Below, one piece after another: positions 2,329 through 54,825 of a stretch of DNA of 64,000 bases. The notes under the pieces were generated by a model. It saw nothing but the letters and a program-made list of their open reading frames with translations. It had not been told where the DNA came from and searched no databases. Position numbers and translations under genes: made by a program. The stretch comes from a virus: the IMG/VR virus record IMGVR_UViG_3300029112_000175, positions 1,552-65,551 of that record. One strand, written 5' to 3'. Every line of letters starts with the position of its first letter. The stretch's first letter is position 1.

Positions 2329-2604
2329 TTAATATTCTTCATAATATGTTTCGTGTTTCACCGTTGATTTATTCTTTTCTGCATTCTTTACTTTCTGCAA
2401 GGCTGTTTTCCTGTCCTGAAATACAATTTTATCTAAATCAGTATAATGTAGGAGGTAAGCGTGACGATCACGCTTATCACTCCCTACAAAATAATCATCT
2501 TCCACAGTACGGATAATTAGTTCACAGACTTCAAAAATTCCTGTCTGTGGAATTGCTCTTGCATAGTAAAGGATGTCTTTTTTATGAACATCTTCTTTAG
2601 TCAC
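2329..2604 (-). CDS. hypothetical protein
   Basis: ORF overlapping the nrdG start by 8 nt. Confidence 0.4.
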   Translation of the reverse strand: MTKEDVHKKDILYYARAIPQTGIFEVCELIIRTVEDDYFVGSDKRDRHAYLLHYTDLDKIVFQDRKTALQKVKNAEKNKSTVKHETYYEEY

Positions 2605-3220
2605 AATATAAGACCACCTTTTGTTGTTTTAATGTTTCTGGAATATTGATAACACGCTGATTTTTGCTACCTCGCCACTTCGTTGTTACATCTCTCTGTG
2701 CATCTACATATGGTCCATCTACAAGAACATCTACCATTTTTACAATGTCAATACGCTTTTCTTCCTCTTCTGTTGGAATTGTATTGATAAGCAATGGTTG
2801 TAAAATCTGTTCCAATGTATAACCGGTATATAGCCAGATTGTTTTTGCGGGATATAAAAGGCGGATTTGATCGAAATTTTGTGATGAAAAATCACCCATT
2901 TTACAATGAATTTCAGGGGTCAAATTTGGAGAAGCAGGATATTCAGTGCGAATTTCTTGCAAAAGATCTAAGATACCATCAAGATTTGAAGACGCTAATG
3001 GTTCACCTCCAAGAATTGATATTCTTTTTATATACGGTTTGTCAATTAAATCTAAAAAGTGTTTTTTTGTATCATTATTCCATTCTTTTCCACCATTAAA
3101 ATCCCATGCTGTTGAATTAAAACAGTTGTAACATTGAAAAGGACAGCCTTGGACGAACAAAGATACTCCTATGTTCTCTCCATTTGTAATGTCCATAGAT
3201 CTCATAGAAGCATATCTCAT
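2597..3220 (-). CDS. nrdG: Anaerobic ribonucleoside-triphosphate reductase activating protein (radical SAM)
   Basis: GCPFQCYNCFN cluster motif near the N-terminus. Size is ~207 aa. It sits immediately downstream of nrdD with a start/stop overlap. Confidence 0.8.
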   Translation of the reverse strand: MRYASMRSMDITNGENIGVSLFVQGCPFQCYNCFNSTAWDFNGGKEWNNDTKKHFLDLIDKPYIKRISILGGEPLASSNLDGILDLLQEIRTEYPASPNLTPEIHCKMGDFSSQNFDQIRLLYPAKTIWLYTGYTLEQILQPLLINTIPTEEEEKRIDIVKMVDVLVDGPYVDAQRDVTTKWRGSKNQRVINIPETLKQQKVVLYCD

Positions 3221-5467
3221 TTAAATCTCCTCATCTTCAACATCGTCAAGATGGTAAACACGGTCGTGGATATCTCCATATCTTCCTTGGTTTCCACCAT
3301 TTTTTGCAGTTCCAATATATCCGCATACTCTGAAAGCAATATCCATCGTAGTATTGTCAGTATTCCCACAATTAGGGCATTCCCACTTTAATTTGTTGTT
3401 TTCATCTGCAACTAACGGAATGTCACCATCATATCCACATTTCTCACAATAACAACTCTTAGTATTGATTTCGGCATACATAATATTGTTATAAATGAAC
3501 TTAATTACTTCCAATAAAGCTGGGATGTTATGATTCATACTCGGAACCTCGATGTAAGAAATTGCTCCTCCTGGACTTAATTTCTGGAATTTTGATTCAA
3601 TTCTTAATTTTTCAAATGCAGTAATAGGTTCAAATACAGGAATATGATATGAATTCGTGATATAGTTTCTGTCAAACCCATCTAATTTTACAAAGACATC
3701 ATTTCCAAAACGAGATTTTAAACATTTTGCAAATTTATACGTTGTGCTCTCAATTGGGGATCCATATAAACTATAATCAATATTCTCTTTTTCTTTCCAC
3801 TGGTTGCATTTATCATTTAATGCCTGCATAACTTTTAATCCGAATTCTTCCCCAATGCCTTCATCTGAATGGGAATGACCTGTCATATATTTTACACATT
3901 CATATAAACCAGCATAACCTAATGAGATTGTTGAATATCCATCATATAAAAGTCTGTCAATTTTTTCATGCTTTTTCAATCTTGCATATGCACCATGCTG
4001 CCATAAAATAGGCGCTACATCTGATAAAGTTCCTAACAAACGATCATGCCTTGCTCTTAATGCTTTGTGACATAATTCTGTTCTTTCTTCAAAAATCTCC
4101 CAGAATCTATCGAAATCGCCTTCAGAAGACAAAGCAATGTCCGGTAAACTAATTGTTACTACACCTTGATTGAATCTTCCATAATATTTATGTTTGGTTG
4201 GATCAAAATTTTTAGAATTGGAAATATTCCCACATGTTTTAGAAAAGCGATCTACGGTAAGAAAACTGCGACAACCCATGCAAGTGTAAACATCGCCTTT
4301 TAATTCAAGCATCATTTTTTCAGAGATATAATCAGGAACAAGACGTTTAGAAGAGCATTCGGCAGCTAACTGTGTTAAAGACCAATATGGTGAATCTTCC
4401 TGGATGTTATCATTTTCAAGAACATAGATTAATTTAGGAAATGCGGGTGCAACATATGCCCCGTCTTCATTTTTTACTCCTAAAATTCGCTGACGAAGCA
4501 TTTCTTCGATTAGTAAAGCTAAATCATATTTTTCCTGTTCATTTTTTGCTTCATTTAAGTACATAAAAATACTGATAAATGGGGCCTGTCCGTTGGTTGT
4601 CATAAGAGTTACCAATTGATACTGGATTGTCTGAATTCCTTTTTCAATCTCTTCTTTTAATCGTTTTTCGACAATATTATTAATTAACTGTTCTTTAGAT
4701 AATACATAGATATTTTCAACTAAGGTTAATTCTTCATCTACCTGTTTGCGAATTTTTTGTCTGCTGATATCTACAAATGGAGCCAGATGAGCTAAGGAAA
4801 TACTTTGTCCACCATACTGATTACTAGCAATCTGTGCAATTGCCTGTGTAGCAATATTGCAAGCAGTAGAAAATGCATGTGGTTTTTCAATTAACACTTC
4901 GCTAATTACAGTATTATTCTGAAGCATATCTTCAAGATTAACTAATCCGCAGTTATGCATATGCTGGATAAAGTAATCTGCATCATGAAAATGAATCTGT
5001 CCTTCCATATGAGCCTGAATAATTTCAGGTGAAAGTAAATATCTTTTGGTTGCATCTGTACTTACCGATCCAGCAATATAATCTCTTTTAGTTGGATTTA
5101 ACACGGGATTTTTATTGGCATTTTCGTCTTTCCAATATTCATCAAGGTCTTCTACTAATCTTAAAATTTCATCATCTGTCGTATTACTATTTTCACGCTG
5201 AAATTCTCTGATGCTTCTATAACCCTCATATGCTTTTGCAGTAAGACGCTGTTTTTTTGTGATTAGTTTATCGTAAACCATTGATTCAATTTCGGAAATA
5301 TTTACCTCGTCTTTATCCTTGCATTCTAGTTCAATTTCTGTCGCAATATCCTCTGCAATTTTAGGTTTTACAATGCCTGAGCCATTCTTCATTGCCTTTA
5401 AAATAGCAGAAGAAATTTTAGACTTGTCAAATGGTACTTCTGTACAATCTCTTTTAATAACCTGCAT
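3221..5467 (-). CDS. nrdD: Anaerobic ribonucleoside-triphosphate reductase (class III RNR)
   Basis: N-terminal ATP-cone (VIKRDCTEVPFDKSKI). C-terminal Zn ribbon (CEKCGYDG...CPNCG). Glycyl-radical motif FRVCGYIG. Strong SD AGGAGGATAAG before the ATG. Confidence 0.9.
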   Translation of the reverse strand: MQVIKRDCTEVPFDKSKISSAILKAMKNGSGIVKPKIAEDIATEIELECKDKDEVNISEIESMVYDKLITKKQRLTAKAYEGYRSIREFQRENSNTTDDEILRLVEDLDEYWKDENANKNPVLNPTKRDYIAGSVSTDATKRYLLSPEIIQAHMEGQIHFHDADYFIQHMHNCGLVNLEDMLQNNTVISEVLIEKPHAFSTACNIATQAIAQIASNQYGGQSISLAHLAPFVDISRQKIRKQVDEELTLVENIYVLSKEQLINNIVEKRLKEEIEKGIQTIQYQLVTLMTTNGQAPFISIFMYLNEAKNEQEKYDLALLIEEMLRQRILGVKNEDGAYVAPAFPKLIYVLENDNIQEDSPYWSLTQLAAECSSKRLVPDYISEKMMLELKGDVYTCMGCRSFLTVDRFSKTCGNISNSKNFDPTKHKYYGRFNQGVVTISLPDIALSSEGDFDRFWEIFEERTELCHKALRARHDRLLGTLSDVAPILWQHGAYARLKKHEKIDRLLYDGYSTISLGYAGLYECVKYMTGHSHSDEGIGEEFGLKVMQALNDKCNQWKEKENIDYSLYGSPIESTTYKFAKCLKSRFGNDVFVKLDGFDRNYITNSYHIPVFEPITAFEKLRIESKFQKLSPGGAISYIEVPSMNHNIPALLEVIKFIYNNIMYAEINTKSCYCEKCGYDGDIPLVADENNKLKWECPNCGNTDNTTMDIAFRVCGYIGTAKNGGNQGRYGDIHDRVYHLDDVEDEEI

Positions 5468-6563: not shown

Positions 6564-7111
6564 ACATGATCCTCCAGATATTCATTAATATAGTTTAATG
6601 TCTGGTCAAGATCGTCATTGTAGTTGTTATAGCAGATTCTATCTACTACAGTTTCAAAGCCTTTAAAATCATCATTATCAGTTTTTACCCTACGCTCTGC
6701 TTCCTTATCATCATCTCCACGATCCTTTAATCTTTTCTTAATGGTAGAATTATTAGCATAGATATAAAGTAACTTATGCTGCACAGAATAATTCTCGGTG
6801 ATGTCTTTGTATCCAGCCGGTGTTACAATCAGCAAATCTTTTGGACCAGCATTTACTACATCTTCTGTCGCTACACCATAATGGCATCTACCAAATTCTG
6901 CATCATATACCTTATATTCTGCAAAAAATCCTTCTTCTATCTTTTTTTCGAACTCTTCTTCGGAAATAAAATGGTAGTCAATTCCATCTACTTCCTTATT
7001 TCTAATAGGTCTTGTAGTGTATGTGACAATTTTCTTGTATCCGAACTTTTTGCAAAGCTCAGATACAATTCTTGTCTTTCCACTACAGGTCTTACCTGCA
7101 ATAAAAATCAT
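6560..7111 (-). CDS. Guanylate kinase-like (d)NMP kinase
   Basis: P-loop GKTCSGKT, then TYTTRPIR (the Gmk TTR..R motif) and an EYKVYD..YG block. Confidence 0.7.
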   Translation of the reverse strand: MIFIAGKTCSGKTRIVSELCKKFGYKKIVTYTTRPIRNKEVDGIDYHFISEEEFEKKIEEGFFAEYKVYDAEFGRCHYGVATEDVVNAGPKDLLIVTPAGYKDITENYSVQHKLLYIYANNSTIKKRLKDRGDDDKEAERRVKTDNDDFKGFETVVDRICYNNYNDDLDQTLNYINEYLEDHV

Positions 7112-7347
7112 ACGTTATCTCTCCACATCTTCATATCTTTATAGAATTTATCCAGGACAACAGGATTAGATGTATTAATAGAAACAATACACTTCTTATT
7201 AAAACCTGCTGAAATTACGCCTAATAATGATTTGGCATCGACAACATAATGGTCAAATCTATAGTCGATGCTCTCTGTATATTCATTACACTGAGCAACA
7301 AATAAACCTGCATCCTGAACATTGTTTAATTGGATTATCATCTCCAT
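7108..7347 (-). CDS. HPr/Crh-like phosphocarrier-fold protein lacking the catalytic His15
   Basis: Alignable to HPr over its full length. GLFVAQ occupies the GIHARPA position, so His15 is Phe and Arg17 is Ala. The Ser46 region KSLLGVISAGFNKKCIVSI matches KSIMGVMSLGIAKGAEITI. Confidence 0.6.
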   Translation of the reverse strand: MEMIIQLNNVQDAGLFVAQCNEYTESIDYRFDHYVVDAKSLLGVISAGFNKKCIVSINTSNPVVLDKFYKDMKMWRDNV

Positions 7348-7362
7348 TTATATATTCTCCTT

Positions 7363-9357
7363 TTACTGATGAATCATTGCCATTAGCTCTTCTTCTGTAA
7401 TGATCGGAATACCTAATGATTTTGCTTTCTTATTCTTCGAGCTGCTAGAATTAATATCATTATTTACGAGGTATGAAGTCTTGGCGCTCACAGTATCAGA
7501 TACCTTACCACCATATGCCAAGATCTCCGCTTTAGCAGCGTCTCGAATGGTATAGTGATTTAAACTACCAGTAATGACAAATGTCCTACCTTCCAACTTT
7601 TTAGAGTCTACGGCATTCATAGCTTCTTTTAGTGGAGATACTGGCAGTTCAAAGATAAACTCTGTAGAAAGATCCATTACATCATCTATATGTTTCTTGA
7701 AATAAGTATTCATAGAGCCAATAAGTGAATCACCTACACCTGGCAGATGTCTGAAATAATCTGCTCCTTCTACAGTCATTACATGAATGAATGTTCCGTA
7801 ATCACTATCTACTGCTTCAGCGATTGCAGCACTTGCTGTCTTACCCAAAAGTGGAATTGAAAGTGAATATAGGAAACGAGATAAAGTTGTATTACGACTT
7901 GCTTCGATAGAGCTAAGAAGTTTATCTACAGACTTTTTGCCAAAACCATCTAAGGTTTTCATTACTTTTTCATGGGAATGTAGATAATAAATATCTTTAA
8001 TGGAAGTGAGCCAACCAAGAGAAATGAATTTTTCGATTGTTGACTCTGACAGGCCATCAATATTTAATGCATTGCGGCTTACTGCGTGAGTAAGTTTTCC
8101 AAGGAGTTTACCTTTACAATCTGGATTAGTACAAAAAAGCTGTTTGGAGTCATTTTCTTTTATAATCTGAGTCTTACCACCACAAATAGGACAAGTATCA
8201 GGAATGTGGATAAATTGAATATTTGCACTACAGCTATCAGTTTTTTCTCCCCATGTCACCTGCGGTATAATTTGGTTTTTCTTGCATACGCCAATTTCCT
8301 GACCTTTGAATGGTTTATGTAAAAGATCAGCCATAATAGAAATGTTATGCAATGAAGCCCTTTCAACAATTGTCTGTTCTAGTTCCACGGGTTCAAAGAC
8401 CGCAACAGGAGTTAAAACGCCAGTCTTACCCATTCCCCATTCAATATCTTTTAATGTGGTTGTAACTTCCTCATCATAAAATTTAAATGCTAAGGAATGT
8501 CTCGGATGATGTCCTGTCATACCAAGAGATTTACCATATTCTACATCATTGTATGTAATAACGAGACCATCGATAGGATATGATTTTTCTTCTGCGACAG
8601 CTTTTAATTCATCAATGATCTTATTAATGTCATCTTTATCACTGTTATAAAGAATGTATGGAACAACTTCAAAACCTTGCTCTTTTGCATAATTAAATCC
8701 ATCAGTAAATCTTGTAAATCCATATGGCACTTTCCATGCAACAAATCTTATATGACGTTCTTTTGCAATCTTACTATCCAGCTGACGTACCGATCCAGAA
8801 GCAAGATTTCTTGGATTCTTATACTTATCGTCCTCTGCTAATTTACTATTGATCTTTTCAAAATCTTCTTTGGTGATAATTGCTTCGCCTTCGATTTCAA
8901 ACTTATGCGTATTTGAAACCTTTAGCGGTAAATTATCAAAGACTTTAGCATTATGAGTGATCAATTCACCAATCTCACCATTGCCACGAGTTTCACCCTG
9001 AATTAAGCTGCCATTCTCAAAAGTACATAGTGTTGTTAATCCGTCTAACTTTAAAGAAATAATACAATCTCTTCCATCAGAAAACTTAACTAGATCATCT
9101 GTTGCTTTGGTTTTGTCCAAAGATAACATTGGATGTGAGTGTGTTATCTTTTCCAGTTTTGACTTTACTTCATACCCTACTGTCTGGGTAGGTGAGTTAC
9201 CATAAATAATATTCGTTTCATGCTCTAACTGCTCTAACTCATCATACAGATTGTCGTATTCATAATCACTCATTGGACTATTTGAGTTATTATAATACTG
9301 ATTACGAGCATCATTTAGAACTGTAATAAGCTCTTTAATTCTCTGTACTTTGTCCAT
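7363..9357 (-). CDS. ligA: NAD-dependent DNA ligase
   Basis: KLDG adenylation motif (ISLKLDGLT). Zn finger CPICGGK...CTNPDC. C-terminal HhH/BRCT region. 664 aa. SD AAGGAGCG before the ATG. Confidence 0.9.
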   Translation of the reverse strand: MDKVQRIKELITVLNDARNQYYNNSNSPMSDYEYDNLYDELEQLEHETNIIYGNSPTQTVGYEVKSKLEKITHSHPMLSLDKTKATDDLVKFSDGRDCIISLKLDGLTTLCTFENGSLIQGETRGNGEIGELITHNAKVFDNLPLKVSNTHKFEIEGEAIITKEDFEKINSKLAEDDKYKNPRNLASGSVRQLDSKIAKERHIRFVAWKVPYGFTRFTDGFNYAKEQGFEVVPYILYNSDKDDINKIIDELKAVAEEKSYPIDGLVITYNDVEYGKSLGMTGHHPRHSLAFKFYDEEVTTTLKDIEWGMGKTGVLTPVAVFEPVELEQTIVERASLHNISIMADLLHKPFKGQEIGVCKKNQIIPQVTWGEKTDSCSANIQFIHIPDTCPICGGKTQIIKENDSKQLFCTNPDCKGKLLGKLTHAVSRNALNIDGLSESTIEKFISLGWLTSIKDIYYLHSHEKVMKTLDGFGKKSVDKLLSSIEASRNTTLSRFLYSLSIPLLGKTASAAIAEAVDSDYGTFIHVMTVEGADYFRHLPGVGDSLIGSMNTYFKKHIDDVMDLSTEFIFELPVSPLKEAMNAVDSKKLEGRTFVITGSLNHYTIRDAAKAEILAYGGKVSDTVSAKTSYLVNNDINSSSSKNKKAKSLGIPIITEEELMAMIHQ

Positions 9358-14477: not shown

Positions 14478-15086
14478 CTACAACCATCTTACTACCGGTT
14501 CAGATGTACTTCCTTTCTCCCAAACAAACCAAGCATGACACATAGTTGTCGCCCAACGTTTTCCTGTCTTTGGGTCTTTCTCTAATCCACTATTCCAAGT
14601 CGCCATTCTGTTTCTGAAAACATAAATGTACTTCGGCGGATATTTGTCAAATAACTCCTTCCTCTTAGCACCTTCCAAGAACTGGATTTTGAGAAACATA
14701 GCCATTTGACCATCATCTTCCAGTAACTCCATACCCTTTTCTACAAATTCCTTTGCGAGCGAGTACGGTGGATTTGTGATAATTCCTTCATATTTTTTAT
14801 CAGTTTTATATGTAAGGAAATCAGCAACAATTGTTCCAGGATATCCTCGATCTACTAAGTCCATCCCTGTAATTTCTCTCTTGGTTGTATAAAAATCATT
14901 GATTGCATTAGCGATATGCCCACCACCAACACAAGGCTCCAAAATTGTATGTGCATCAAATGTATATTTAGTCAGCAACATTTTTACTGCTTCTGGATTA
15001 GTTGCATAGTAATCATCTTCAACCCTTCCATTTTCTGGATTGCCGCCTGCAAGCTTTGCACCCGCTAATACTTTCTTGTTGTTCAT
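14478..15086 (-). CDS. DNA N6-adenine methyltransferase (orphan, small)
   Basis: Motif I EPCVGGGH followed by motif IV IITNPPYS. Confidence 0.65.
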   Translation of the reverse strand: MNNKKVLAGAKLAGGNPENGRVEDDYYATNPEAVKMLLTKYTFDAHTILEPCVGGGHIANAINDFYTTKREITGMDLVDRGYPGTIVADFLTYKTDKKYEGIITNPPYSLAKEFVEKGMELLEDDGQMAMFLKIQFLEGAKRKELFDKYPPKYIYVFRNRMATWNSGLEKDPKTGKRWATTMCHAWFVWEKGSTSEPVVRWL

Positions 15087-15169
15087 TTCTTCACCAGAAA
15101 GGTGACATGTCCTTAGTAGCTACCCTAACTTTTTCCTTTCTGATTTGTTATTCTCTTATTTATTAGATG

Positions 15170-15910
15170 TTAATTGCTATATTCTGTTACTCTTTTACTT
15201 CCTATTTCAAAAATGTCTTTATCCTTTTCGAAACAAATATAATTTCTTCCTGTGTTCATAGCTGCAATTGCTGTTGTACAACTACCGGCACAAGAATCCA
15301 AAATCAAATCGCCAGGATTAGAATATGTTTTAATAAGTTCCTCGATCAGAGCAACAGGTTTTTGTGTGCCATGATAGGCTGCTTTTTGAGTATCTTTAGC
15401 AAATGTCCATACTGACTTCGGATATCGTTTTGTAGAGTCATAATCCTGCCATTCGCTCTTACCATAATCCGTTGATTCTTTTGCATTTACATGATGTGCC
15501 GCCTTTAATACTTTTCTTTCATGACCGTCTGTCATTTGAGGATTATATGTAGGTGGTTTCTTGTAGAAAATACAGATATCTTCATGAGAACGTAACGGCA
15601 TTTTCTTGGCATTTAGAAATCCGGTTGGCTGTGTTTTCTGCCAGATAAGATTATATTTCCAAAGCTTACGATTACTCTCCATTAAATCAGCAGTGAACAT
15701 GCCACTCCCAAATAGAATAATTGCACCGTTATCTTTGATAATTCTTTCATACTGTTCCCATAATGACTCAAACGGAATAACCGAATCCCATTTATTGCGA
15801 CTGGTAATTCCGAAAGGAAGATCTGTGATGATTGCATCTATTGATTTATCATCAATTTTCTTCATACCTTCAAGGCAATCTTCATTGTAGATTTTATTGA
15901 TTTCTAACAT
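15170..15910 (-). CDS. DNA methyltransferase (beta-class N6A/N4C, orphan)
   Basis: Motif IV-like ITDLPFG near the N-terminus. Motif I LILDSCAGSCTTAIAA near the C-terminus. This is beta-class MTase architecture. Confidence 0.65.
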   Translation of the reverse strand: MLEINKIYNEDCLEGMKKIDDKSIDAIITDLPFGITSRNKWDSVIPFESLWEQYERIIKDNGAIILFGSGMFTADLMESNRKLWKYNLIWQKTQPTGFLNAKKMPLRSHEDICIFYKKPPTYNPQMTDGHERKVLKAAHHVNAKESTDYGKSEWQDYDSTKRYPKSVWTFAKDTQKAAYHGTQKPVALIEELIKTYSNPGDLILDSCAGSCTTAIAAMNTGRNYICFEKDKDIFEIGSKRVTEYSN

Positions 15911-15984: not shown

Positions 15985-16263
15985 TTATTCTGGAATTTTT
16001 GAACAGAAACGCTCATTGATAGATACGACTTCTAATTTGATATGATTTTTGATAAGGTTATCAACTGCTTTATCTAAATTACCATTGACCGCTTTTATTT
16101 CATTTATTACTTTATATATGGCATCTTTCGTATACACTGTCGCATCATCTACAAATTCTTTTGCATCCTTCTCTAAAATAACTTTCACAGGTTTATCGTC
16201 TGCCGTAGGAAGAATGTAAATCTTATGATTTTCAACATCTCTGACTGCTATAATTTCCGTCAT
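15985..16263 (-). CDS. hypothetical protein
   Basis: ORF in array. Confidence 0.4.
   Translation of the reverse strand: MTEIIAVRDVENHKIYILPTADDKPVKVILEKDAKEFVDDATVYTKDAIYKVINEIKAVNGNLDKAVDNLIKNHIKLEVVSINERFCSKIPE
15989..16022 (-). promoter_or_regulatory. Copy 1 of a ~33-nt conserved motif (GGAATTTTTGAACAGAAACGCTCATTGATAGAT), upstream of the methyltransferase gene
   Basis: About 29/33 identity with copy 2 at 47557-47590. It overlaps the C-terminal codons of ORF 15985..16263. Confidence 0.35.
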
Positions 16264-16765
16264 GTTCTAACACCTCTTTAGGGCAAAAAACAATTTCCTT
16301 ACCAGCCTTTTGAGCTTTGCGAATCGTAGACCAAACACCGCCAGATTTGTTTCCGTCCCAAATTGCTAATAATACATCACAATGATCAACCATGTATTGA
16401 TCTCTTACATTATCACAGCCTTTATAGAATTCATCTGATAATTCTACCCATTCATCTGCATACTTCTTCATGTCTTTATAAAATGGATGCGATGAATTAT
16501 AATTTTTACATGGCAGAACACAATGTAACACTAATGGAATAATTCTATTTACTTTTGCTAATGCGGCTACAGTTCCAAATACAAAATCGCTTCCAGAAGC
16601 CATACCACAATAAACTTCCAAATTTTTTCCATTTAAATAAGAAACTTCATTCATTTTAAAAAGCTGTTCTATAATCCATTCTTCAATTTTCTTCCAGGCG
16701 ATATCTGATTCATCTTCTGGCAGTCCTAATCTTTGTGGTCTATGACCTGTTAATGCTACTCTCAT
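16232..16765 (-). CDS. SLOG-superfamily YpsA/DUF1273-like Rossmann protein
   Basis: ALTGHRP resembles the YpsA AITGYKP motif. CGMASGSDFVFGT and DVLLAIWDGNKSGG are also similar to YpsA blocks. Confidence 0.5.
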   Translation of the reverse strand: MRVALTGHRPQRLGLPEDESDIAWKKIEEWIIEQLFKMNEVSYLNGKNLEVYCGMASGSDFVFGTVAALAKVNRIIPLVLHCVLPCKNYNSSHPFYKDMKKYADEWVELSDEFYKGCDNVRDQYMVDHCDVLLAIWDGNKSGGVWSTIRKAQKAGKEIVFCPKEVLEHDGNYSSQRC

Positions 16766-16773
16766 ATATCCTC

Positions 16774-17079
16774 CTATAACAGTACCGCCTTCACATCACC
16801 ACAAGTAATATTGGGTTCATACGATGGTTTTTCTAAAGTGGCTGGTGTTGGCGTTCCTGTGATCTCCTGTCTAGTGGTAGGCAGTGGCGTATTGGTAATA
16901 GTCCAAAGTGGTTTTGGAATAGTCTGTGAGTTCTTACCATCATCATATCCTGCCTGGTAAACCTCATCTAAAATTTCTTTTAATCGTTTCTTATCAATAG
17001 AAACCTGATCGTTTCCAATATCTTCAAAATCAAAATATACTGCTGGCTTCATAAGTACATTCTCCTTCCATATCATCAT
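16774..17079 (-). CDS. hypothetical protein
   Basis: ORF in array. Confidence 0.35.
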   Translation of the reverse strand: MMIWKENVLMKPAVYFDFEDIGNDQVSIDKKRLKEILDEVYQAGYDDGKNSQTIPKPLWTITNTPLPTTRQEITGTPTPATLEKPSYEPNITCGDVKAVLL

Positions 17080-17105
17080 TTTTTAAATTCTTTGCTTCTA
17101 CAAAA

Positions 17106-17396
17106 CTATTGAACAAACCCCTCATTACATTTATCCAATAAACATTTGTTAACAACATCGTCTACTATCTCAAAAAGTTCATGACTCATTCTAAAACAAC
17201 GAAACTTTTTGTTCCTGTCTTTATTGTAATCACTTCTTAATGTACAAAATCCAGCTCTTTTTCTTTTGTTGTTATCCCAATGCTTAGGATCTGCATAAAA
17301 TACCTGTTTATCAGCTTTATATTTTTCCTTGTCGTGTCGTAATTGTTTCTCAATCCTTATTTTTCCATCTTCTAGGGATTTATTATATGGCGTCAT
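17106..17396 (-). CDS. hypothetical protein
   Basis: ORF in array. Confidence 0.35.
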   Translation of the reverse strand: MTPYNKSLEDGKIRIEKQLRHDKEKYKADKQVFYADPKHWDNNKRKRAGFCTLRSDYNKDRNKKFRCFRMSHELFEIVDDVVNKCLLDKCNEGFVQ

Positions 17397-17438
17397 TTAG
17401 CTCCTTCTGCACTCATGAAATTTCTCTTTTGTCTTATT

Positions 17439-17669
17439 CTATTTTCCTCTCATTTTCTTGTTCCATGCTTTTAAGGCATTTTCAGGTGTTTTGCATAATC
17501 CTGTTTTATTGTTATTAAGATCTCCATCTGTCCATTTGCATTCCCAACAAATAATTCTATATCCTCTAGTGTTAGTATTTGGGATAATATCTTTTTCCAC
17601 CACAATTCTTGGAATACAGCCGCATTTCCTACATTTTAATACATGGCTTTCAAAATACTCTTCTGTCAT
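17439..17669 (-). CDS. zinc-ribbon small protein
   Basis: CRKCGC...CWECKW four-Cys pattern. Confidence 0.4.
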   Translation of the reverse strand: MTEEYFESHVLKCRKCGCIPRIVVEKDIIPNTNTRGYRIICWECKWTDGDLNNNKTGLCKTPENALKAWNKKMRGK

Positions 17670-17732
17670 TTATTATCTTCTCCTTTTTTATTTTTTTAAA
17701 TAAAAATAAATTCAAACATCACTTTATCTTTT

Positions 17733-17951
17733 CTATGAAAAAACTTTTCTATTTTCATGAACACTAATCCCAATTGTAGAAACAGCTAATCCATAATATT
17801 TTGAAGCATCAGTCATCGAATCAAAACATTTACCGTCATTTAAACATTTAACTTTCTTTGAAAGAACCTCTTTTGTTCTTTCTATGGCTCTTTCCCAATT
17901 TTTTTCATTACCTAATCTAGTATATGGTAACATGTTATCCCTTCTCTTCAT
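17733..17951 (-). CDS. small protein translationally coupled to the radical-SAM gene
   Basis: Its ATG overlaps the radical-SAM TGA as ATGA, inside the repeated 14-mer TCATTCTGAAACGG. Confidence 0.45.
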   Translation of the reverse strand: MKRRDNMLPYTRLGNEKNWERAIERTKEVLSKKVKCLNDGKCFDSMTDASKYYGLAVSTIGISVHENRKVFS

Positions 17952-18859
17952 TCTGAAACGGCATCATATATCTTACCTACTTCATATTTGTAGTCCTCAA
18001 TCTTAGTTCTTCGGTAATAATCACAATAACAATGTCCATCAGTATCAATTACGTATTCAATACCTTTTGTAAGAATAGATGTATCCGATACTCCATGTAA
18101 GAAAAATACCCTCATGCCATCCTTTCTACGAAGCCTGCACCAATGAGAATCTGTTGTTTCTTCATAATTTATTGTATCAAATTGCCATCTTTCATTTTTA
18201 CTTTCAATAAGGTATTCATCAAATATCTTAAATTCTTTCCAAAAAACATCACATCTAAATCTAACAGAAATAAACCCGCATAATTTAGCCCAAGCAATAA
18301 ACATATCCCTCCATTGCCGAAAATTTTCAATTGGTCTAAATATAACCGCACACGCCGACACTGTAATTCCAATATTGTTTAAAGCTTTAATTATATATGT
18401 ATATTCTCCGATACCGATACAAAATCCTAATATTTCGTTTCTTCTATATGGACTCCAATCATGTACTGAAATATTTACATAATTTACAACATCTTTCATA
18501 TACGGGATAACTGCTTTAAGATTCGATCCATTGGATGTCAATGTCACTCTTAGAACTTTAGATTTAATATCATATTCTTTTAGTTTTATCAGCACATCCT
18601 TTAATAATTCAATATCTAATGTAGGCTCGCCACCAGTTATATCAAGAGAAACTGGATTTTTGTTACCAATCAGAGTAATGATATTGTCAAGCGAGGCCAT
18701 AAAGTTATATAAAAATTGTTCCTTGTCATATGATACTTGTTTATCTTTATTGTAACAAAACGGGCATTTGGCATTGCATCCGCTAGGTATCACTAATTTT
18801 ACAGTAATTACCTTATTGTAGTCTTTTCTTTCTATGTATTTCACATTAATCACCATCAT
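17948..18859 (-). CDS. Radical SAM enzyme of unknown function
   Basis: CNAKCPFC (CxxxCxxC) at residues ~28-35. GGEPT glycine-rich SAM motif. C-terminal Cys residues (HCYCDYY). Confidence 0.7.
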   Translation of the reverse strand: MMVINVKYIERKDYNKVITVKLVIPSGCNAKCPFCYNKDKQVSYDKEQFLYNFMASLDNIITLIGNKNPVSLDITGGEPTLDIELLKDVLIKLKEYDIKSKVLRVTLTSNGSNLKAVIPYMKDVVNYVNISVHDWSPYRRNEILGFCIGIGEYTYIIKALNNIGITVSACAVIFRPIENFRQWRDMFIAWAKLCGFISVRFRCDVFWKEFKIFDEYLIESKNERWQFDTINYEETTDSHWCRLRRKDGMRVFFLHGVSDTSILTKGIEYVIDTDGHCYCDYYRRTKIEDYKYEVGKIYDAVSE

Positions 18860-18976
18860 TCTGAAACGGACGTTTCATTAGTCTTCTGTGAATAACATAT
18901 CGGTAACCGAATCAACATCCCAATTGATCTCACCCATATATTCTCCATTTTCTGTCCATAATTTAGCATTCAACAT
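18856..18976 (-). CDS. small peptide gene(s) immediately upstream of the radical-SAM gene (two overlapping candidate frames)
   Basis: Frame A (18878..18976) gives MLNAKLWTENGEYMGEINWDVDSVTDMLFTED, 32 aa and acidic. Frame B (18856..18969) gives MLNYGQKMENIWVRSIGMLIRLPICYSQKTNETSVSE, 37 aa. Frame B has SD GGAG 9 nt upstream, and its TGA overlaps the radical-SAM ATG. Confidence 0.35.
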
Positions 18977-19037
18977 ATCTCCATTTTCTTCTAATGTTAA
19001 ACGTTTCCCACTCTCTAAAATAAAATCTAATATAATT

Positions 19038-19685
19038 TTACACCTCTATTTTATCGCTAATTGTTTTTAAACTATCCAGAAATTGTTTCATCCAAAGATT
19101 CTTCATTTCAGCATCTTTGATAGCTTCCTGCCAACGTTGATACGCACTTTTTACATTATCTTTTTCGTATTGCTTTTTATCATCTAAATACTCTTGTACT
19201 TCTTCATCTGTCCAAAATAATCCTGCATTATCCATATCTGCACTGCGTTTGTACCTTTGTAGGTCTCTGTCTGAAACAATGCAATAATCAATTTGATCTA
19301 AAGCAAATTTTTTTATTTCTTCATGATCAGCTGTGAGAGGAATCCACTTTAAGATTTCTTCTTTAATTTTTAAGTATTTTTTGTTGTTTTCAACACATTC
19401 TTTATAATACCTTCTGGAAGACTCTGCTTCTCTTTTATAAGCCTCAATTATATCCTGTTTTGCTTCTTCATAAGTCCTCAGCTGAATTTCATTATACCCT
19501 CTTACGGCTTTTTCATATTGCTGTTTATAATACGGATTAACTTCAAAATGAGTAGGTGTAGGAACCGATAATGGTTCATCTCTTAAATCCGAAGCAATTC
19601 CAAAATTTCTTGTACAGAGCTTTAGAAAATCTGCTCCATTTGTAATTGTTCCATCTTTTATAAATTCTGTATAAAGTGTTGGCAT
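19038..19685 (-). CDS. hypothetical protein
   Basis: ORF in array. Confidence 0.4.
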   Translation of the reverse strand: MPTLYTEFIKDGTITNGADFLKLCTRNFGIASDLRDEPLSVPTPTHFEVNPYYKQQYEKAVRGYNEIQLRTYEEAKQDIIEAYKREAESSRRYYKECVENNKKYLKIKEEILKWIPLTADHEEIKKFALDQIDYCIVSDRDLQRYKRSADMDNAGLFWTDEEVQEYLDDKKQYEKDNVKSAYQRWQEAIKDAEMKNLWMKQFLDSLKTISDKIEV

Positions 19686-19697
19686 AAACGTACCTCC

Positions 19698-20246
19698 CTA
19701 CAAAATTTCATCTACAATTCCATATTTGAACGCATCGCATGAATGAATATAAAAATCTTTTTTCTTTTCACGAATATCATCGATATCCTCTTTGGTAAGT
19801 TTGGTTCTTTCGATTACATATTCTTCAATTTCTTTGTTCATTAAATCTTTTTCGGTTCTGTCTTCAACATGATCTTGATATTTTCCACTACTATAATAAT
19901 GCATTTGATGATACATAAATGTAGAATGTTTATAACAATATCTTTTATGCCCAGCAAGAAAAATCTTAAAAGCTGCACTCATTGCGTATCCAGTGCAATA
20001 TGTATAAACAGGAGTCTTACTATTCTGGATTACATCAATTAAACCCCACATATCATAAACAGCACCGCCATATGAATTGATATAGAGTTTAATCGGTTCT
20101 CTCTTATAATCCTTTTCTTTCTTATCTTTTTCATCATCTTCTGCAATTTGATATAAAATACTCCACGTAAGTTGTCCAATAGAAGAATTATCTACATCGT
20201 CTGATAAAAAATATAATCGCTTTTCAATGTTTGTGTATGTATTCAT
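19698..20246 (-). CDS. ClpP-family serine peptidase-like protein
   Basis: YINSYGGAVYDMWGLID...YCTGYAMSAAFKIFLAG gives the Ser site. MYHQMH gives the His site. Spacing is ClpP-like. Confidence 0.55.
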   Translation of the reverse strand: MNTYTNIEKRLYFLSDDVDNSSIGQLTWSILYQIAEDDEKDKKEKDYKREPIKLYINSYGGAVYDMWGLIDVIQNSKTPVYTYCTGYAMSAAFKIFLAGHKRYCYKHSTFMYHQMHYYSSGKYQDHVEDRTEKDLMNKEIEEYVIERTKLTKEDIDDIREKKKDFYIHSCDAFKYGIVDEIL

Positions 20247-20256
20247 TTATACTCCT

Positions 20257-20526
20257 TTAAATACCATTAATTTCCTTAATTAAATCCAATCGCTCATTAC
20301 ATACTCTGTTTATATATGACAGACAAGCATTCTTTAATCTGTAAATTTTTTGGAACTCCCGTTCTATTTCAGCTTCATACTTTTTCTTCTCTTCATCGGT
20401 AAGAGATTCCCACCATTTATTCCGAAGATATTGCCTGTACCATACAATAGCATCCCATCCACGGATTAAATGCCAGTTATTCCTTTTCGTTTCTGCGTAC
20501 CACATCATGTCAAACACCTTCTCCAT
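20257..20526 (-). CDS. hypothetical protein
   Basis: ORF in array. Confidence 0.35.
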   Translation of the reverse strand: MEKVFDMMWYAETKRNNWHLIRGWDAIVWYRQYLRNKWWESLTDEEKKKYEAEIEREFQKIYRLKNACLSYINRVCNERLDLIKEINGI

Positions 20527-22252: not shown

Positions 22253-22280
22253 TGGTTCGCACCTCCTATAGTATTATTCT

Positions 22281-22820
22281 CTAATGTAAATAATTTTTTA
22301 GATAATATTCAAAGTACCCTCGAATGAATAATCCTGAATACTGATTATTCGGCATAAACATAACTGGAATATTATATTTGAACCAAAAACTATGAATCGA
22401 AGCCCAAAATGACTTCTTATTATATTGTGTGTTATAATTACCAGTTGCTATATCTGAATAATTGGCATTCTCAATCAATAACACTTTTATAGGTGGAGCA
22501 AGGCATAATTCTTTTTCAAATCGATCCCTACCCTGTGTTAAATTGCCGCTGATTTCTTCCAAACTGGCTTTTCGTTCCACTACTACCTGTTTATCAAAGT
22601 ATAAAGCTCTTGGGATAGATAGCTTTTCATTAGCTGGCAGCATGAAGCTATAGTCTCCATAATTAAGTGCTTTCTTTTTATATTTGATTTCTTTTCTGTC
22701 GAAATAATCTGTGATATGATTCGCTTGCTTTTCGCGTGTATCGATAAGGATAGTGATGGAAGAGATTAACTCTTCCATCTCCTTATCTGTATATTTGAAA
22801 TTATTAATCATCTTCCTCAC
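22281..22820 (-). CDS. ERCC4/XPF-type (Hef/Mus81-like) nuclease
   Basis: ILIDTREK, GDYSF and VVVERKASLEEISGNLTQGRDRFEKE fit the GDY...ERK...GR..Q nuclease signature. Confidence 0.45.
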   Translation of the reverse strand: MRKMINNFKYTDKEMEELISSITILIDTREKQANHITDYFDRKEIKYKKKALNYGDYSFMLPANEKLSIPRALYFDKQVVVERKASLEEISGNLTQGRDRFEKELCLAPPIKVLLIENANYSDIATGNYNTQYNKKSFWASIHSFWFKYNIPVMFMPNNQYSGLFIRGYFEYYLKNYLH

Positions 22821-53610: not shown

Positions 53611-54825
53611 TCACCTCAATTCAATCAGATACTTAATAGTACATTGCTCTTCTTTGTAAACAATAATCTCATCATTACGCAGCATATCTCCCGCATGAGC
53701 GTGTAAACAATTCGCACCAGGACAAACGGATTGAAGTTTACTGTAATCAAAGCTGTAATATTTACTATCGAAGGAATACACATCATATGGTTTACCATAA
53801 GCTACATCCATTAATGCCATAAAACCAAAATTGGAATCACCTCTAACCCAATAGCTTCCACTCAAACTGGTATAACCAAGAGATTTTCTAGCTTTTGGTG
53901 CATAATAAATACCATACCCAAACATCTTACCCGTGATGACAGCATTAGTTGGTTTTAAGACAAGACCACTATTGATGATGAACCACCAATTTTCATTCCT
54001 GCTACCATGGAACAATAACTTTGTCTCCGTAATATTATTCTCTTTTACAAAATCATCAAAACGTTTCTGCGTCTTAAGGTTTTTGACTTTCCATGCCTTA
54101 TGGAATTTATCAGAGCATGATCCAAGTGCATCTTTAATAATAGCGATATCCTTTTTATCACATTCTTCGAATACCAGTCCCAACTGCTCAAGAATTGTAT
54201 TCTTGATTTTTACATCATTTTCCGCTTTTGTTTCTTCAATGACCTGTTTCTGTACGACCTGTCCTTTCATAACATCGAGCAGATCCTGTTCTTTTTGAAT
54301 AATCTCAGAGAAATTATTGCTAGACTTAGCAAGATAATCTGAAACGTATCCCATTTTTCTAGGAATAACAGTAAAGAGTTTTAACAGAATATTATTAAAT
54401 TCTTCAACTTCTTTAATATCAAGTAAACTTGTCAAAACATCTTGTGCTTCATCCACCATTGCCTGAGTTACTTTGTTAGAAGAAATCGTATAATTGTCGC
54501 TGATAGCTTTTCGTGCCATTGCTTGTAATCGTTCTACAATCTCAGCAATAACTTTATTTTCAATTTCTTTATATTCTGAGTTTTTAGGTTTTTCAACCTG
54601 AATTAAGTCTTCTACAAGTTCACTCTGATCAACATAGCCTTTGCGAAGTTTTTCTTTATATTTTGATTCCCACTGACTCATAGAATACTCTCTATGTTGT
54701 GGACTGCTTCCTACCCTTCCGTATTCAGCAGTCCAACTATCTCCATGAGGAATCTGTTTATAATATTTATTATTATTCGCAGAAGCAGTGACCATCACTA
54801 AATATCTTGGTTTGATCTCTGCCAT
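53611..54825 (-). CDS. PARP-like ADP-ribosyltransferase (WGR domain + helical domain + H-Y-E catalytic domain)
   Basis: N-terminal WGR-like HGDSWTAEYGRVGSS. C-terminal LLFHGSRNENWWFIINSGL...TGKMFGYGIYYAPKARKS...DEIIVYKEE aligns with PARP1 LLWHGSR...TGYMFGKGIYFAD...NEYIVY. His, Tyr and the catalytic Glu are all present. Confidence 0.75.
   Translation of the reverse strand: MAEIKPRYLVMVTASANNNKYYKQIPHGDSWTAEYGRVGSSPQHREYSMSQWESKYKEKLRKGYVDQSELVEDLIQVEKPKNSEYKEIENKVIAEIVERLQAMARKAISDNYTISSNKVTQAMVDEAQDVLTSLLDIKEVEEFNNILLKLFTVIPRKMGYVSDYLAKSSNNFSEIIQKEQDLLDVMKGQVVQKQVIEETKAENDVKIKNTILEQLGLVFEECDKKDIAIIKDALGSCSDKFHKAWKVKNLKTQKRFDDFVKENNITETKLLFHGSRNENWWFIINSGLVLKPTNAVITGKMFGYGIYYAPKARKSLGYTSLSGSYWVRGDSNFGFMALMDVAYGKPYDVYSFDSKYYSFDYSKLQSVCPGANCLHAHAGDMLRNDEIIVYKEEQCTIKYLIELR

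Follow-up and report, generated by a model that had tools for sequence, protein, structure and literature searches.

A phage radical SAM gene that is probably a single-gene cassette gained and lost at a short direct repeat

Introduction

A radical SAM (rSAM) gene lying among small open reading frames (ORFs) in a phage genome raises the question of whether the enzyme acts on the peptides encoded beside it or whether the arrangement has another origin. Such a locus is found in the 64-kb stretch of DNA analysed here as a whole (the window), which comes from a large phage of gut Clostridia. An earlier interpretation of the letters alone (the sequence-only reading) compared it with peptide-modifying, RiPP-like loci and alternatively with a conserved coupling or regulatory element, and the sequence facts on which it drew are all present. 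The locus belongs to a hyperplastic early region with all genes on the minus strand and with a ClpP-like protease, DNA methyltransferases and a Lar-like gene as neighbours. Comparison with related phages indicates that this uncharacterised rSAM gene is probably a single-gene cassette gained or lost at a short direct repeat in phages of gut Clostridia, and that the small ORFs are unrelated passengers and not peptide substrates. What the locus shows is the usual mosaicism of phage genomes, here around an enzyme whose chemistry is uncharacterised.

The radical SAM gene and its family

The 303-aa ORF with the motifs CNAKCPFC and GGEPT, described in the sequence-only reading, was found by direct reading at 17948-18859 on the minus strand.

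17948..18844, minus strand: rSAM gene, probable coding sequence of 298 aa from GTG 18844-18842 (303 aa in the mechanical ORF, which extends to ATG 18859)
18849..18854, minus strand: Shine-Dalgarno (SD) sequence GGTGAT, 4 nt 5' of the rSAM GTG start, by direct sequence reading

The protein belongs to the radical SAM superfamily, as evidenced by its match to PF04055 (56.1 bits, cut-off 29.5), by a CX3CX2C motif (C28/C32/C35) that is invariant in 120 of 120 aligned homologs, and by a (beta/alpha) TIM-barrel core with the GGE SAM-binding motif; its AF2 model has a pLDDT of 95. Codon 18844-18842, which is GTG in the window and ATG in 4 near-identical strains, aligns with Met1 in most homologs, and these start there with ATG or GTG after GAGGTGAT. 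The SD-GTG layout of the window also parallels the GAGGTGAT-N3-GTG of 26 IMG/VR homologs. Judged from the sequence, the working start is likely to be GTG 18844-18842 and not the ATG 18859 of the ATGA overlap.

The family comprises 197 homologs of about 300 aa, conserved over the full length and all unnamed, "hypothetical protein" being the sole public name of its members. In a search of 1.84 billion representatives 39 clusters were found at 1e-30 or below and 354 at 1e-10 or below, and the hosts are Clostridia and Bacilli, including a prophage of Eubacterium segne BX4 (L084). A query of IMG/VR with the single protein returned nothing, while the alignment-based search recovered homologs. Among GenBank phages there was no near DNA match, and the protein matches were only core-level ones of about 27% to rSAMs of jumbo phages. 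The BFVD fold search gave no characterised close structure (best TMq 0.69, unnamed), profile matches in the PDB were confined to the core, and the literature search for a characterised phage rSAM of such kind yielded nothing relevant.

The assignment to an unknown family by the sequence-only reading is upheld, since the protein fits no named family and QueE, NrdG, MoaA and viperin all remain below curated cut-offs. QueE, named by that reading as an example of a well-known non-peptide family, was rejected at 23.9 bits against a cut-off of 260. Among named HMMs, MoaA (GTP 3',8-cyclase, PDB 1tv7) ranks first or second for the protein and its distant relatives, and it resembles the phage protein in length (about 300-340 aa) and in having a full rSAM barrel with a C-terminal extension. 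However, the scores are 45.6 bits against 284 for TIGR02666 and 35.6 against 325 for TIGR02668, the profile similarity ends at about residue 177, and the phage-borne rSAM gene is stand-alone with no molybdopterin genes nearby. MoaA carries a C-terminal three-cysteine auxiliary cluster through which GTP is bound. Its three-cysteine motif is absent from the phage protein, and the C-terminal cysteines of the phage family are scattered, differently spaced and individually dispensable. Viperin/pVip (PDB 5vsl), whose products are 3'-deoxy-3',4'-didehydro nucleotides, is a single-cluster rSAM of similar size with a nucleoside triphosphate as substrate, and the PADLOC scan matched only the pVip core (47 bits with the pVip models); yet NF038283 gives 40.6 bits against a cut-off of 180, the matches span residues 21-149 only and do not take in the C-terminal extension by which viperin binds CTP, the gene lies in a phage and not in a host defence island, and the conserved residues of the C-terminal half are not related by sequence to those of viperin.

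The top NCBIfam match is NrdG2 (45.9 bits), and the window contains an NrdD gene (3221-5467), so that a glycyl-radical activase, for instance for the phage NrdD, comes into consideration. A bona fide NrdG at 2597-3220 (148 bits, cut-off 126), however, adjoins NrdD, the NrdG2 match covers the generic core only and is far under the cut-off of 131, and the full barrel and conserved 125-aa C-terminal half are absent from activases. An activase role is thereby hardly credible.

The SPASM/twitch RiPP maturases (SuiB, CteB, SkfB, PapB and the SCIFF maturase) share with the window the superficial picture of an rSAM gene among small ORFs, but they have 380-460 aa against about 300 aa. The NCBIfam models of RiPP maturases (PapB, SCIFF, CcpM, nif11, ryptide and others) gave 27-43 bits against cut-offs of 340-855, every score being 8- to 20-fold under its cut-off. 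No SPASM match was obtained with Pfam, and neither the SPASM spacing CX2CX5CX3C nor at least three invariant twitch cysteines are present. In 121 members the C-terminal cysteines are found at C203 in 107, at C241 in 105, at C277 in 84 and at C279 in 108, and they are replaced one by one, as in the patterns CLCC, CCLC, HCLA and NCAA. As most members retain 3-4 of them, an auxiliary cluster may be present in many members of the family. No RiPP recognition element (RRE, a PqqD-like module for leader binding) was detected in the protein, whose core begins at about residue 18 with no N-terminal domain before it.

The flanking small open reading frames

The RiPP-like reading takes the rSAM as a peptide maturase and the flanking 32/37-aa and 72-aa ORFs as its translationally coupled precursors. 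The small ORFs around the gene and the ATGA overlaps are real, the overlaps being seen at both junctions by direct reading. The upstream side contains the following features.

18878..19033, minus strand: p51, a very acidic protein of 51 aa, a real conserved gene with ATA as codon 1 here
18880..19058, minus strand: variable segment with an alternative tail of the 215-aa gene (...SDKIEV-stop), an SD and p51
19038..19685, minus strand: 215-aa gene (phrog_8905, unknown function), the upstream neighbour

Of the two upstream peptides, the 37-aa ORF (18856-18969) exists as a frame and is not a gene, its last 7 codons (NETSVSE-stop) being the cut-off C-terminus of an upstream 217-aa gene. The 32-aa ORF (18878-18976) exists and is acidic as reported, but it is only the C-terminal two thirds of p51. 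Homologs of p51 (P0122-P0128) have 50-53 aa, are 70-94% identical and cover 93-94% of the 54-codon frame; in L106 the start is ATG. The p51 gene occurs without the rSAM gene in L106-L113, L115 and L116, and the two stand together in one lineage only (37 rSAM lineages, 4 p51 lineages). At a single locus, L114, a p51 homolog lies beside another, unrelated rSAM, which can be counted in favour of RiPP. A functional link of p51 with the rSAM suggested by this locus was rejected: the rSAM there is of a different type (24% core identity) and three sister loci are without it.

By nucleotide alignment and blastn breakpoints the variable segment is missing from the sister strains L080-L083 and L102, while L079, L104 and L105 carry at this point another insert with a 75-aa ORF; p51 is in this way lost in sister strains. 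The 215-aa gene has homologs only in L007, the window-type strains and L106-L110. As a conserved partner of the rSAM it was rejected, being missing from most lineages and from L105, and the upstream gene of L005 belongs to a different PHROG.

On the downstream side one ORF adjoins the rSAM gene.

17733..17951, minus strand: 72-aa ORF, probable start ATG 17933 after AAGGGA

The ORF exists as the sequence-only reading described it, yet it is a +1T-frameshifted copy of an 84/78-aa ORFan, with the extra T within the run 17738-17743. A search of 5.8 billion proteins gave a single homolog of the ORF, which belongs to this very phage type, and the ORF is internally deleted in L102 and L104. It is likely to start at ATG 17933 and not at the ATG 17951 of the ATGA overlap. 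Translational coupling through the ATGA overlaps, assumed in the sequence-only reading, is unlikely, because both the rSAM gene and the downstream ORF have their own SD and a start a few bases further on.

The 72/84-aa ORF weakly resembles the I-TevI DNA-binding domain (17 bits where the cut-off is 27), a PHROG HTH and the C-terminal end of phrog_4538, which brings in homing-endonuclease mobility, in which the ORF would be a relic DNA-binding module, the rSAM gene would have moved by co-conversion and the repeat would be a by-product. Decay of the ORF in several strains is what a relic would show, and a GIY-YIG gene lies near the rSAM gene in L001 and L002. However, every match is sub-threshold and none is to a nuclease domain, L007 and the IMG/VR group carry the rSAM cassette without the downstream ORF, and the model predicts no direct repeat exactly bracketing the rSAM gene, which leaves the explanation improbable.

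Across 95 loci of 37 lineages no recurrent neighbour of the rSAM gene was found: neighbour families are each limited to 6 lineages or fewer, and none of the small ORFs is conserved. The p51 gene and the 72/84-aa ORF are each tied to the rSAM gene in one lineage only. Small ORFs not conserved beside the gene in relatives are what the sequence-only reading itself had named as speaking against its proposal, and, with no conserved peptide partner, no SPASM/twitch and no RRE, the RiPP-like interpretation is largely refuted and now very improbable. The flanking ORFs are a relic-tail artefact, a real p51 found elsewhere without the rSAM gene, and a decaying ORFan. For annotation the lesson is that mechanically called small ORFs can mimic a RiPP cluster and that comparison of sister strains resolves the matter.

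The repeated 14-mer and the hairpin

The 14-mer TCATTCTGAAACGG is exact at 17948-17961 and 18856-18869, as the sequence-only reading stated, and occurs nowhere else in the 64-kb window with up to 2 mismatches allowed.

17948..17961, minus strand: 3' copy of the 14-mer (coding strand CCGTTTCAGAATGA), last rSAM codons A-V-S-E-stop
18856..18869, minus strand: 5' copy, left over from the final codons of the 217-aa gene (S-V-S-E-stop) and included in the junction/leader that precedes the rSAM gene
18862..18877, minus strand: palindrome TGAAACG-TC-CGTTTCA, left edge of the block common to all rSAM contexts of the lineage
18846..18878, minus strand: mini-ORF of 10 codons (MKRPFQNDGD-stop), running from the hairpin to 1 nt short of the GTG; function uncertain

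In L080-L083 and L102 the 217-aa gene runs in frame through the 14-mer (...ISNETSVSE-stop). At the position of the 3' copy the rSAM proteins of relatives end in DAVLE-stop, DAVME-stop, DAVTE-stop or DAVSD-stop, and L007 reads CCGTTTTGGAGTGA. The two copies agree at 14/14 positions in each of the ten window-type assemblies.

That two adjacent genes share their final 11 nt and TGA by chance in an AT-rich genome might be thought of, as exact 14-mer direct repeats are frequent in the window (90 pairs observed against 38 +/- 7 expected, and 7 against 2 expected for pairs less than 1.5 kb apart). The register, however, is exceptional: among 4851 pairs drawn from 99 gene ends none exceeded 12/14, which was the best match, and the 5' copy agreed with other gene ends at 9/14 at most. 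The same core, moreover, lies on either side of the rSAM gene in L007, an independent lineage, and is present once at empty sites, and coincidence is extremely improbable.

The upstream-junction hairpin of the sequence-only reading is likewise there, as the palindrome TGAAACG-NN-CGTTTCA, and a functional regulatory or coupling element kept by selection (a leader hairpin with a mini-ORF, or a palindromic operator) can be considered. The palindrome is kept in four contexts, namely the window type, L007, L008 (loop GT) and the empty sites, where a C->T change is RNA-compatible and preserves a G.U pair. The mini-ORF ends right at the rSAM start both in the window and in L008, where it reads MKRSFHEVVIV-stop and overlaps the rSAM ATG, and in L007 it is fused in frame. 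The identity of the copies in the ten assemblies and the L008 leader, which folds better than shuffles (z -2.96), point the same way. On the other side, the fold energy of the window hairpin is ordinary (z -0.14) and the hairpin has no U-tract, Rfam gave no match in 16500-20500, and the promoter/terminator scan remained at background level with no excess. The 3' copy has no complementary arm nearby and therefore forms no hairpin at the 3' junction. A fixed-spacing hairpin-to-start pattern had 0 matches among the rSAM loci, because the spacing varies between lineages, and in most homologous rSAM loci the motif is absent altogether. In rSAM-less phages a different gene follows the element, which is therefore not rSAM-specific. 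A selected regulatory element is accordingly an unlikely account of the repeat; it is compatible with a recombination joint and does not replace it. What stands of the conserved junction element proposed earlier is that the 5' copy lies within a junction/leader conserved in several lineages, while the duplication is better explained by insertion or deletion of a gene whose boundaries the repeat marks than by a regulatory device.

Filled and empty sites

In the rSAM-less L106-L111 the order is p215-p51-tgaaatgtCCGTTTCAGAAgaagg..ATG(p84m), with a single core CCGTTTCAGAA between the upstream and the next gene, while L007 has the layout ..gaaacgtCCGTTTCAGAA-rSAM-gatgCCGTTTTGGAGtga..ATG(p85m). Across the junctions compared, the window type has two copies with 14/14 identity and L007 two with 10/14, and L106, L107, L109 and L111 have one. 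The repeat thus flanks a variable gene and is single-copy where this gene is absent. The left flank of L106 equals the 5' flank of the window, and its right flank agrees with the 3' flank of L007 at 102 of 120 nt. Blastn collinearity with L106, L109 and L111 breaks at window position 18846 and resumes at about 17399-17408, which delimits the following block.

17400..18845, minus strand: exchanged block of the rSAM gene, the 72-aa ORF and the Lar-like 76-aa gene, which replaces p84m + 119 aa of the rSAM-less L106-L111

By these alignments the duplicated 14-mer is probably a recombination joint. Since one core copy is present without the rSAM gene and one on each side with it, the gene would have been either inserted with duplication of a short sequence or lost through recombination between the repeats. 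The left copy of the window type would derive from the former SVSE-stop of the 217-aa gene, and the right copy would be the variable AVSE-stop of the rSAM gene. The filled/empty inference is composite, because L106 differs from the window downstream too (p84m instead of the HTH ORFan) and L007 differs upstream (no p51), and no strictly isogenic filled/empty pair was found. The DAV-x-E C-terminus conserved in close relatives partly explains the 3' copy, so that the similarity may be partly gene-intrinsic. In IMG/VR there were 0 matches to the exact empty-site junction of the window type (CGTCCGTTTCAGAATGAAGAGAAG) and 0 to its circle/tandem junction (ATGCCGTTTCAGAATGATGGTGATT).

Cassette behaviour is also seen in closely related loci. 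The 26 loci with an rSAM gene of at least 91% nucleotide identity show 4 upstream and 9 downstream contexts, and among the ten near-identical assemblies 3 arrangements are seen upstream and 3 downstream, with both 14-mers in every one. In the IMG/VR group an intergenic motif, AGAGAATAAATATNTGTGAGGT, recurs on both sides of the rSAM gene.

For T4-type phages, mobile cassettes bounded by PeSLs are described in hyperplastic regions (Arbiol et al. 2010, PMC2839356; Comeau et al. 2014, PMC4122927), and close relatives among these phages are described as differing by insertions, deletions and replacements of such cassettes (PMC2839356). Non-essential genes of the hyperplastic regions are gained, lost and swapped at short repeated junctions, as at the present locus; but the window repeat is only 11-14 nt long, partly coding and present in 2 copies per 64 kb, and, while the PeSL repeat consists of a promoter and a terminator stem-loop, the window repeat has no sigma-70 promoter or terminator signature. 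For phage biology the locus offers a clean case, resolved to the base, in which a gene was gained or lost at a boundary repeat of 11-14 nt within a hyperplastic region of gut Firmicutes phages.

Possible activity of the enzyme

The main question raised by the locus is the enzyme itself, a member of a conserved unannotated rSAM family with a predicted MoaA/viperin-like fold and an invariant, sequence-unique C-terminal pocket. Invariant in the C-terminal half are R200, R202, R242, R244, R250, K265, E233, D237, E268, Y269, Y278 and D280. With the one [4Fe-4S] cluster of the CX3CX2C motif the enzyme would cleave SAM to a 5'-deoxyadenosyl radical, which would take hydrogen from a substrate bound by the conserved C-terminal half, and it would need neither an auxiliary cluster nor a peptide partner of its own. 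As a tentative best guess, less probable than the alternatives taken together, the substrate is a phosphate-bearing nucleotide or nucleic acid; a host or phage macromolecule is possible.

The gene moves among phages on its own, as is usual for counter-defence and DNA-modification functions. The enzyme would serve in genome or RNA modification or in counter-defence, early in infection. Rather speculatively, the ~300-aa family might be a phage-specific branch of MoaA/viperin-like rSAMs with a new activity (on a nucleotide, DNA/RNA or a host macromolecule), serving as a freely exchangeable counter-defence or genome-modification cassette of gut Clostridia phages. If so, its members might modify a nucleobase or a sugar in a new way, or might destroy or imitate a defence signal. 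The identity of the substrate could add a new radical-SAM reaction to the biochemistry of phage-host conflict, the novelty of the chemistry being conjectural here. The inference on the substrate is a weak one, and the N-terminal extensions of distant family members, which are HEAT repeats and not RRE, would fit a macromolecule better than a small nucleotide.

Gene neighbourhood and search for a partner

At this locus, ordinary phage mosaicism surrounds an uncharacterised radical-SAM (rSAM) enzyme, the substrate of which is the only interesting point left. Every gene between 15 and 22 kb of the window lies on the minus strand, and around rSAM the gene content is that of a typical early or host-takeover region, as listed here.

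14478-15910, minus strand: two DNA methyltransferases
16232-16765, minus strand: YpsA/SLOG-like protein
17439-17669, minus strand: Lar-like restriction-alleviation protein (weak match)
19698-20246, minus strand: ClpP-like protease

In 95 loci of 37 rSAM lineages, ORFs of 30 aa or longer that lie on the same strand as the rSAM gene and no more than 3 kb from it were clustered. The most widespread neighbour families were Thg1-like (6/37 lineages) and N6/N4 methyltransferase (5/37); none exceeded 6 of the 37, and no small ORF recurred beside the gene in this set. The 26 IMG/VR-type loci in which rSAM nucleotide identity is 91% or higher show 4 upstream and 9 downstream contexts, variously combined, and rSAM behaves like a module of one gene. 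The sequence-only reading had likened the small ORFs around rSAM to a RiPP-like arrangement and named a lack of their conservation in relatives as what would refute it; they are not conserved across these loci, and the RiPP interpretation is not supported, as neither SPASM/RRE features in the protein nor a conserved partner were found.

The repeated 14-mer as a probable recombination joint

All elements claimed earlier are there: the ORFs, two exact copies of the 14-mer TCATTCTGAAACGG (17948-17961 and 18856-18869), an ATGA overlap at each junction, and a palindrome (18862-18877). On the coding strand the 14-mer is CC GTT TCA GAA TGA, so that a 37-aa ORF and rSAM both end V-S-E-stop. In the AT-rich, strand-skewed window 90 pairs of exact 14-mer repeats occur versus 38 +/- 7 expected, with 7 pairs at most 1.5 kb apart versus 2 expected; the exact repeat as such is nothing unusual for the window, while its register is. 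When 99 gene-sized ORFs were compared pairwise over their final 14 nt (4851 pairs), the best match was 12/14, and the 5' copy matched other gene ends at 9/14 at best.

The related rSAM-less phages L106-L111, with 84-98% identity to the window on either flank, have the order ClpP-p215-p51 (p215, the 215-aa upstream neighbour; p51, an acidic 51-aa protein gene), followed by tgaaatgtCCGTTTCAGAAgaagg(c/t)gaataaATG and the membrane protein gene p84m. In the locus L007, where rSAM is 85% identical to that of the window, the layout is ...gatgaaacgtCCGTTTCAGAAagaggtg-rSAM-gatgCCGTTTTGGAGtgagataaataaATG and then a homolog of p84m (75% identity). On its left, L106 has the window 5' flank, and its right flank matches the L007 3' flank (102/120 nt) and not the L007 5' flank; from these matches, one core copy lies at the rSAM-less junction and one on each side at rSAM junctions. 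The alternative in the sequence-only reading, a conserved element at the junctions, was right in part. Such a pattern is the signature of either insertion with a short target or microhomology duplication, or deletion between short direct repeats. By inference, rSAM would have been either gained in the first of these ways or lost in the second.

The rSAM tail after YDAV is variable across the family, which fits a 3' copy donated by the local junction. The window block of rSAM, a 72-aa ORF and the Lar-like 76-aa gene (17400-18845) stands in for p84m and a 119-aa gene of L106. A comparable pattern is seen in the IMG/VR group, where the intergenic motif AGAGAATAAATATNTGTGAGGT recurs on both sides of rSAM. 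According to PMC2839356, non-essential genes in the hyperplastic regions of T4-type phages are shuffled via repeats; however, those repeats are promoter-terminator units, which the window repeat is not.

Upstream side, hairpin and downstream side

The upstream side was resolved by comparison with near-identical strains, in which rSAM identity is 99%. The counterpart of the 215-aa gene has 217 aa in L080-L083 and L102, runs through the hairpin and 14-mer, and ends ...LDSLEIISNETSVSE*, its stop TGA being that of the ATGA overlap. A 179-nt segment (18880-19058) truncates this tail in the window, as in contig L103, which is identical to it, and the 37-aa ORF turned out not to be a gene: it is an out-of-frame run across the insert, with the relic NETSVSE* at its end. 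Another insert occupies the same point in L079, L104, and L105, with a 75-aa ORF in frame with the relic tail. This ORF (L079:1986-2213, L104, L105) reads MNYCNANF... and is fused to HETSVSE*; in L105 it directly follows a 174-aa gene, the ClpP-like and 215-aa genes being missing.

The window insert carries p51 as a real gene: a 54-codon open frame matches the 50-53-aa homologs P0122-P0128 (70-94% identical, start MLDFILESGKR...).

18878-19033, minus strand: p51, conserved very acidic 51-aa phage protein family (MLDFILESGKR...WTENGEYMGEINWD...)

Its start position is ATA (19033-19031) in the window and likewise in L103, and ATG in L106. The gene occurs without any rSAM in L106-L113, L115, and L116, while at L114:763-1494 an unrelated 243-aa radical-SAM gene (core-only identity 24%) lies directly upstream of the p51 homolog and is replaced by a 156-aa gene in three sister loci.

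Whichever of five upstream contexts precedes it, the shared block has its exact start at ATGAAACG. The palindrome is retained, with an altered loop in L008 and a G.U-compatible substitution at empty sites, and the mini-ORF from the hairpin terminates at the rSAM start in both the window and L008, so that a function in translation or RNA processing is possible; however, fold stability in the window is ordinary (z -0.14), Rfam gave no match to the element, and it also lies 5' of a different gene in rSAM-less phages.

Downstream, five sister strains have the 72-aa ORF as one of 84 aa (78 aa if read from Met7, behind the SD AAGGGA), and the frameshift in the window is one surplus T in a T-run. The ORF has a single homolog in a 5.8-billion-protein collection, from the same phage type, carries an internal deletion in L102 and L104, and resembles I-TevI-type DNA-binding and HTH modules below threshold.

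The radical-SAM enzyme

The N-terminus MKYIER... of most homologs aligns to codon 6 of the mechanical 303-aa ORF (17948-18859). At that start codon the 26 IMG/VR loci have GTG preceded by GAGGTGAT, the window reads GGTGAT-TAAT-GTG, and four near-identical strains have ATG instead. Judged by these starts, the working CDS is most likely 17948-18844 (298 aa) with a putative GTG start, and translation probably does not begin at the ATG within the ATGA overlap.

The proposal that the enzyme is of unknown family was borne out, since no NCBIfam model came near its cut-off.

NCBIfam scores of the rSAM protein (bits/cut-off)
NrdG2: 45.9/131
MoaA: 45.6/284
PapB: 42.8/340
Viperin: 40.6/180
QueE: 23.9/260

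The Pfam match was the generic Radical_SAM/Fer4_12 core alone (residues 24-173), to which PHROGs and PADLOC matches were likewise confined. The same 5.8-billion-protein collection contained 197 homologs; among the 120 listed, identity was 51-99%, nearly all had 295-310 aa, and none was named, the sole public name found being "MAG TPA: hypothetical protein [Caudoviricetes sp.]". The 50%-identity representatives (1.84 billion) gave 39 clusters at <=1e-30 and 354 at <=1e-10. Members are found in IMG/VR contigs of 50-245 kb and also in Clostridia, Bacilli, and Erysipelotrichaceae genomes or MAGs, including Eubacterium segne BX4.

The family is conserved along its whole length, with CX3CX2C invariant, GGEPT/GNEPT conserved, and R200, R202, E233, T235, D237, S238, W240, R242, R244, R250, K265, E268, Y269, Y278, and D280 of the C-terminal half kept in at least 95% of members. 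An obligatory SPASM/twitch cluster is excluded, because many members have lost C203, C241, C277, or C279 by individual substitutions. The AlphaFold2 model is confident (pLDDT 95.3). For distant halo members the best named models were MoaA and viperin (50-60 bits), with margins so small that a substrate class is just suggested; the protein is an uncharacterised MoaA/viperin-like enzyme, anything on its substrate being conjecture. Some 40-45%-identical members have N-terminal extensions of ~110 aa with HEAT repeats, which hint at a macromolecular substrate or partner of distant members. Extensions in distant members (31-51% identical) measure ~110 aa in L089-L093 and L096, ~62 aa in L058 and L062-L064, and 81 aa in L072/L073.

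A role as ribonucleotide reductase activase is ruled out, since the window encodes its own NrdD-NrdG pair.

2597-5467, minus strand: gene pair of NrdD, an anaerobic ribonucleotide reductase (ATP-cone and glycyl-radical domain, 584 bits), and beside it a genuine NrdG (148 bits, exceeding the cut-off for this activase)

In L005/L006 a stretch of 4.5 kb contains three radical-SAM-like genes (3349-3999, 4001-4909, 6809-7708): the family member is abutted by a 216-aa phrog_17662 protein that weakly resembles rSAM enzymes, and an additional 299-aa Radical_SAM protein follows 1.9 kb downstream.

Other features of the window

Of the 9-mer AGAGAATAA, the coding (minus) strand has 19 copies and the opposite strand one (for example 15148-15156, 22274-22282, 38214-22, 55309-17, and 59412-20); with at most one mismatch the counts are 83 versus 12. 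Seven of the 19 sites are outside ORFs of at least 60 aa, the non-ORF share of the strand being ~10%. In IMG/VR relatives (L013-L036) its core lies on both sides of rSAM and recurs 4-6 times per 9 kb, on the coding strand only; a role as phage promoter or intergenic signal is possible.

Two further genes were recorded.

53611-54825, minus strand: 404-aa protein, PARP catalytic domain (80 bits) and weak WGR domain
63017-63853, minus strand: 278-aa ORF, weak adenylosuccinate synthase similarity (42 bits, far below cut-off)

A PARP catalytic domain is unusual in a phage. The 278-aa ORF is, by this similarity, a conceivable candidate for a PurZ-like enzyme in 2-aminoadenine DNA synthesis.
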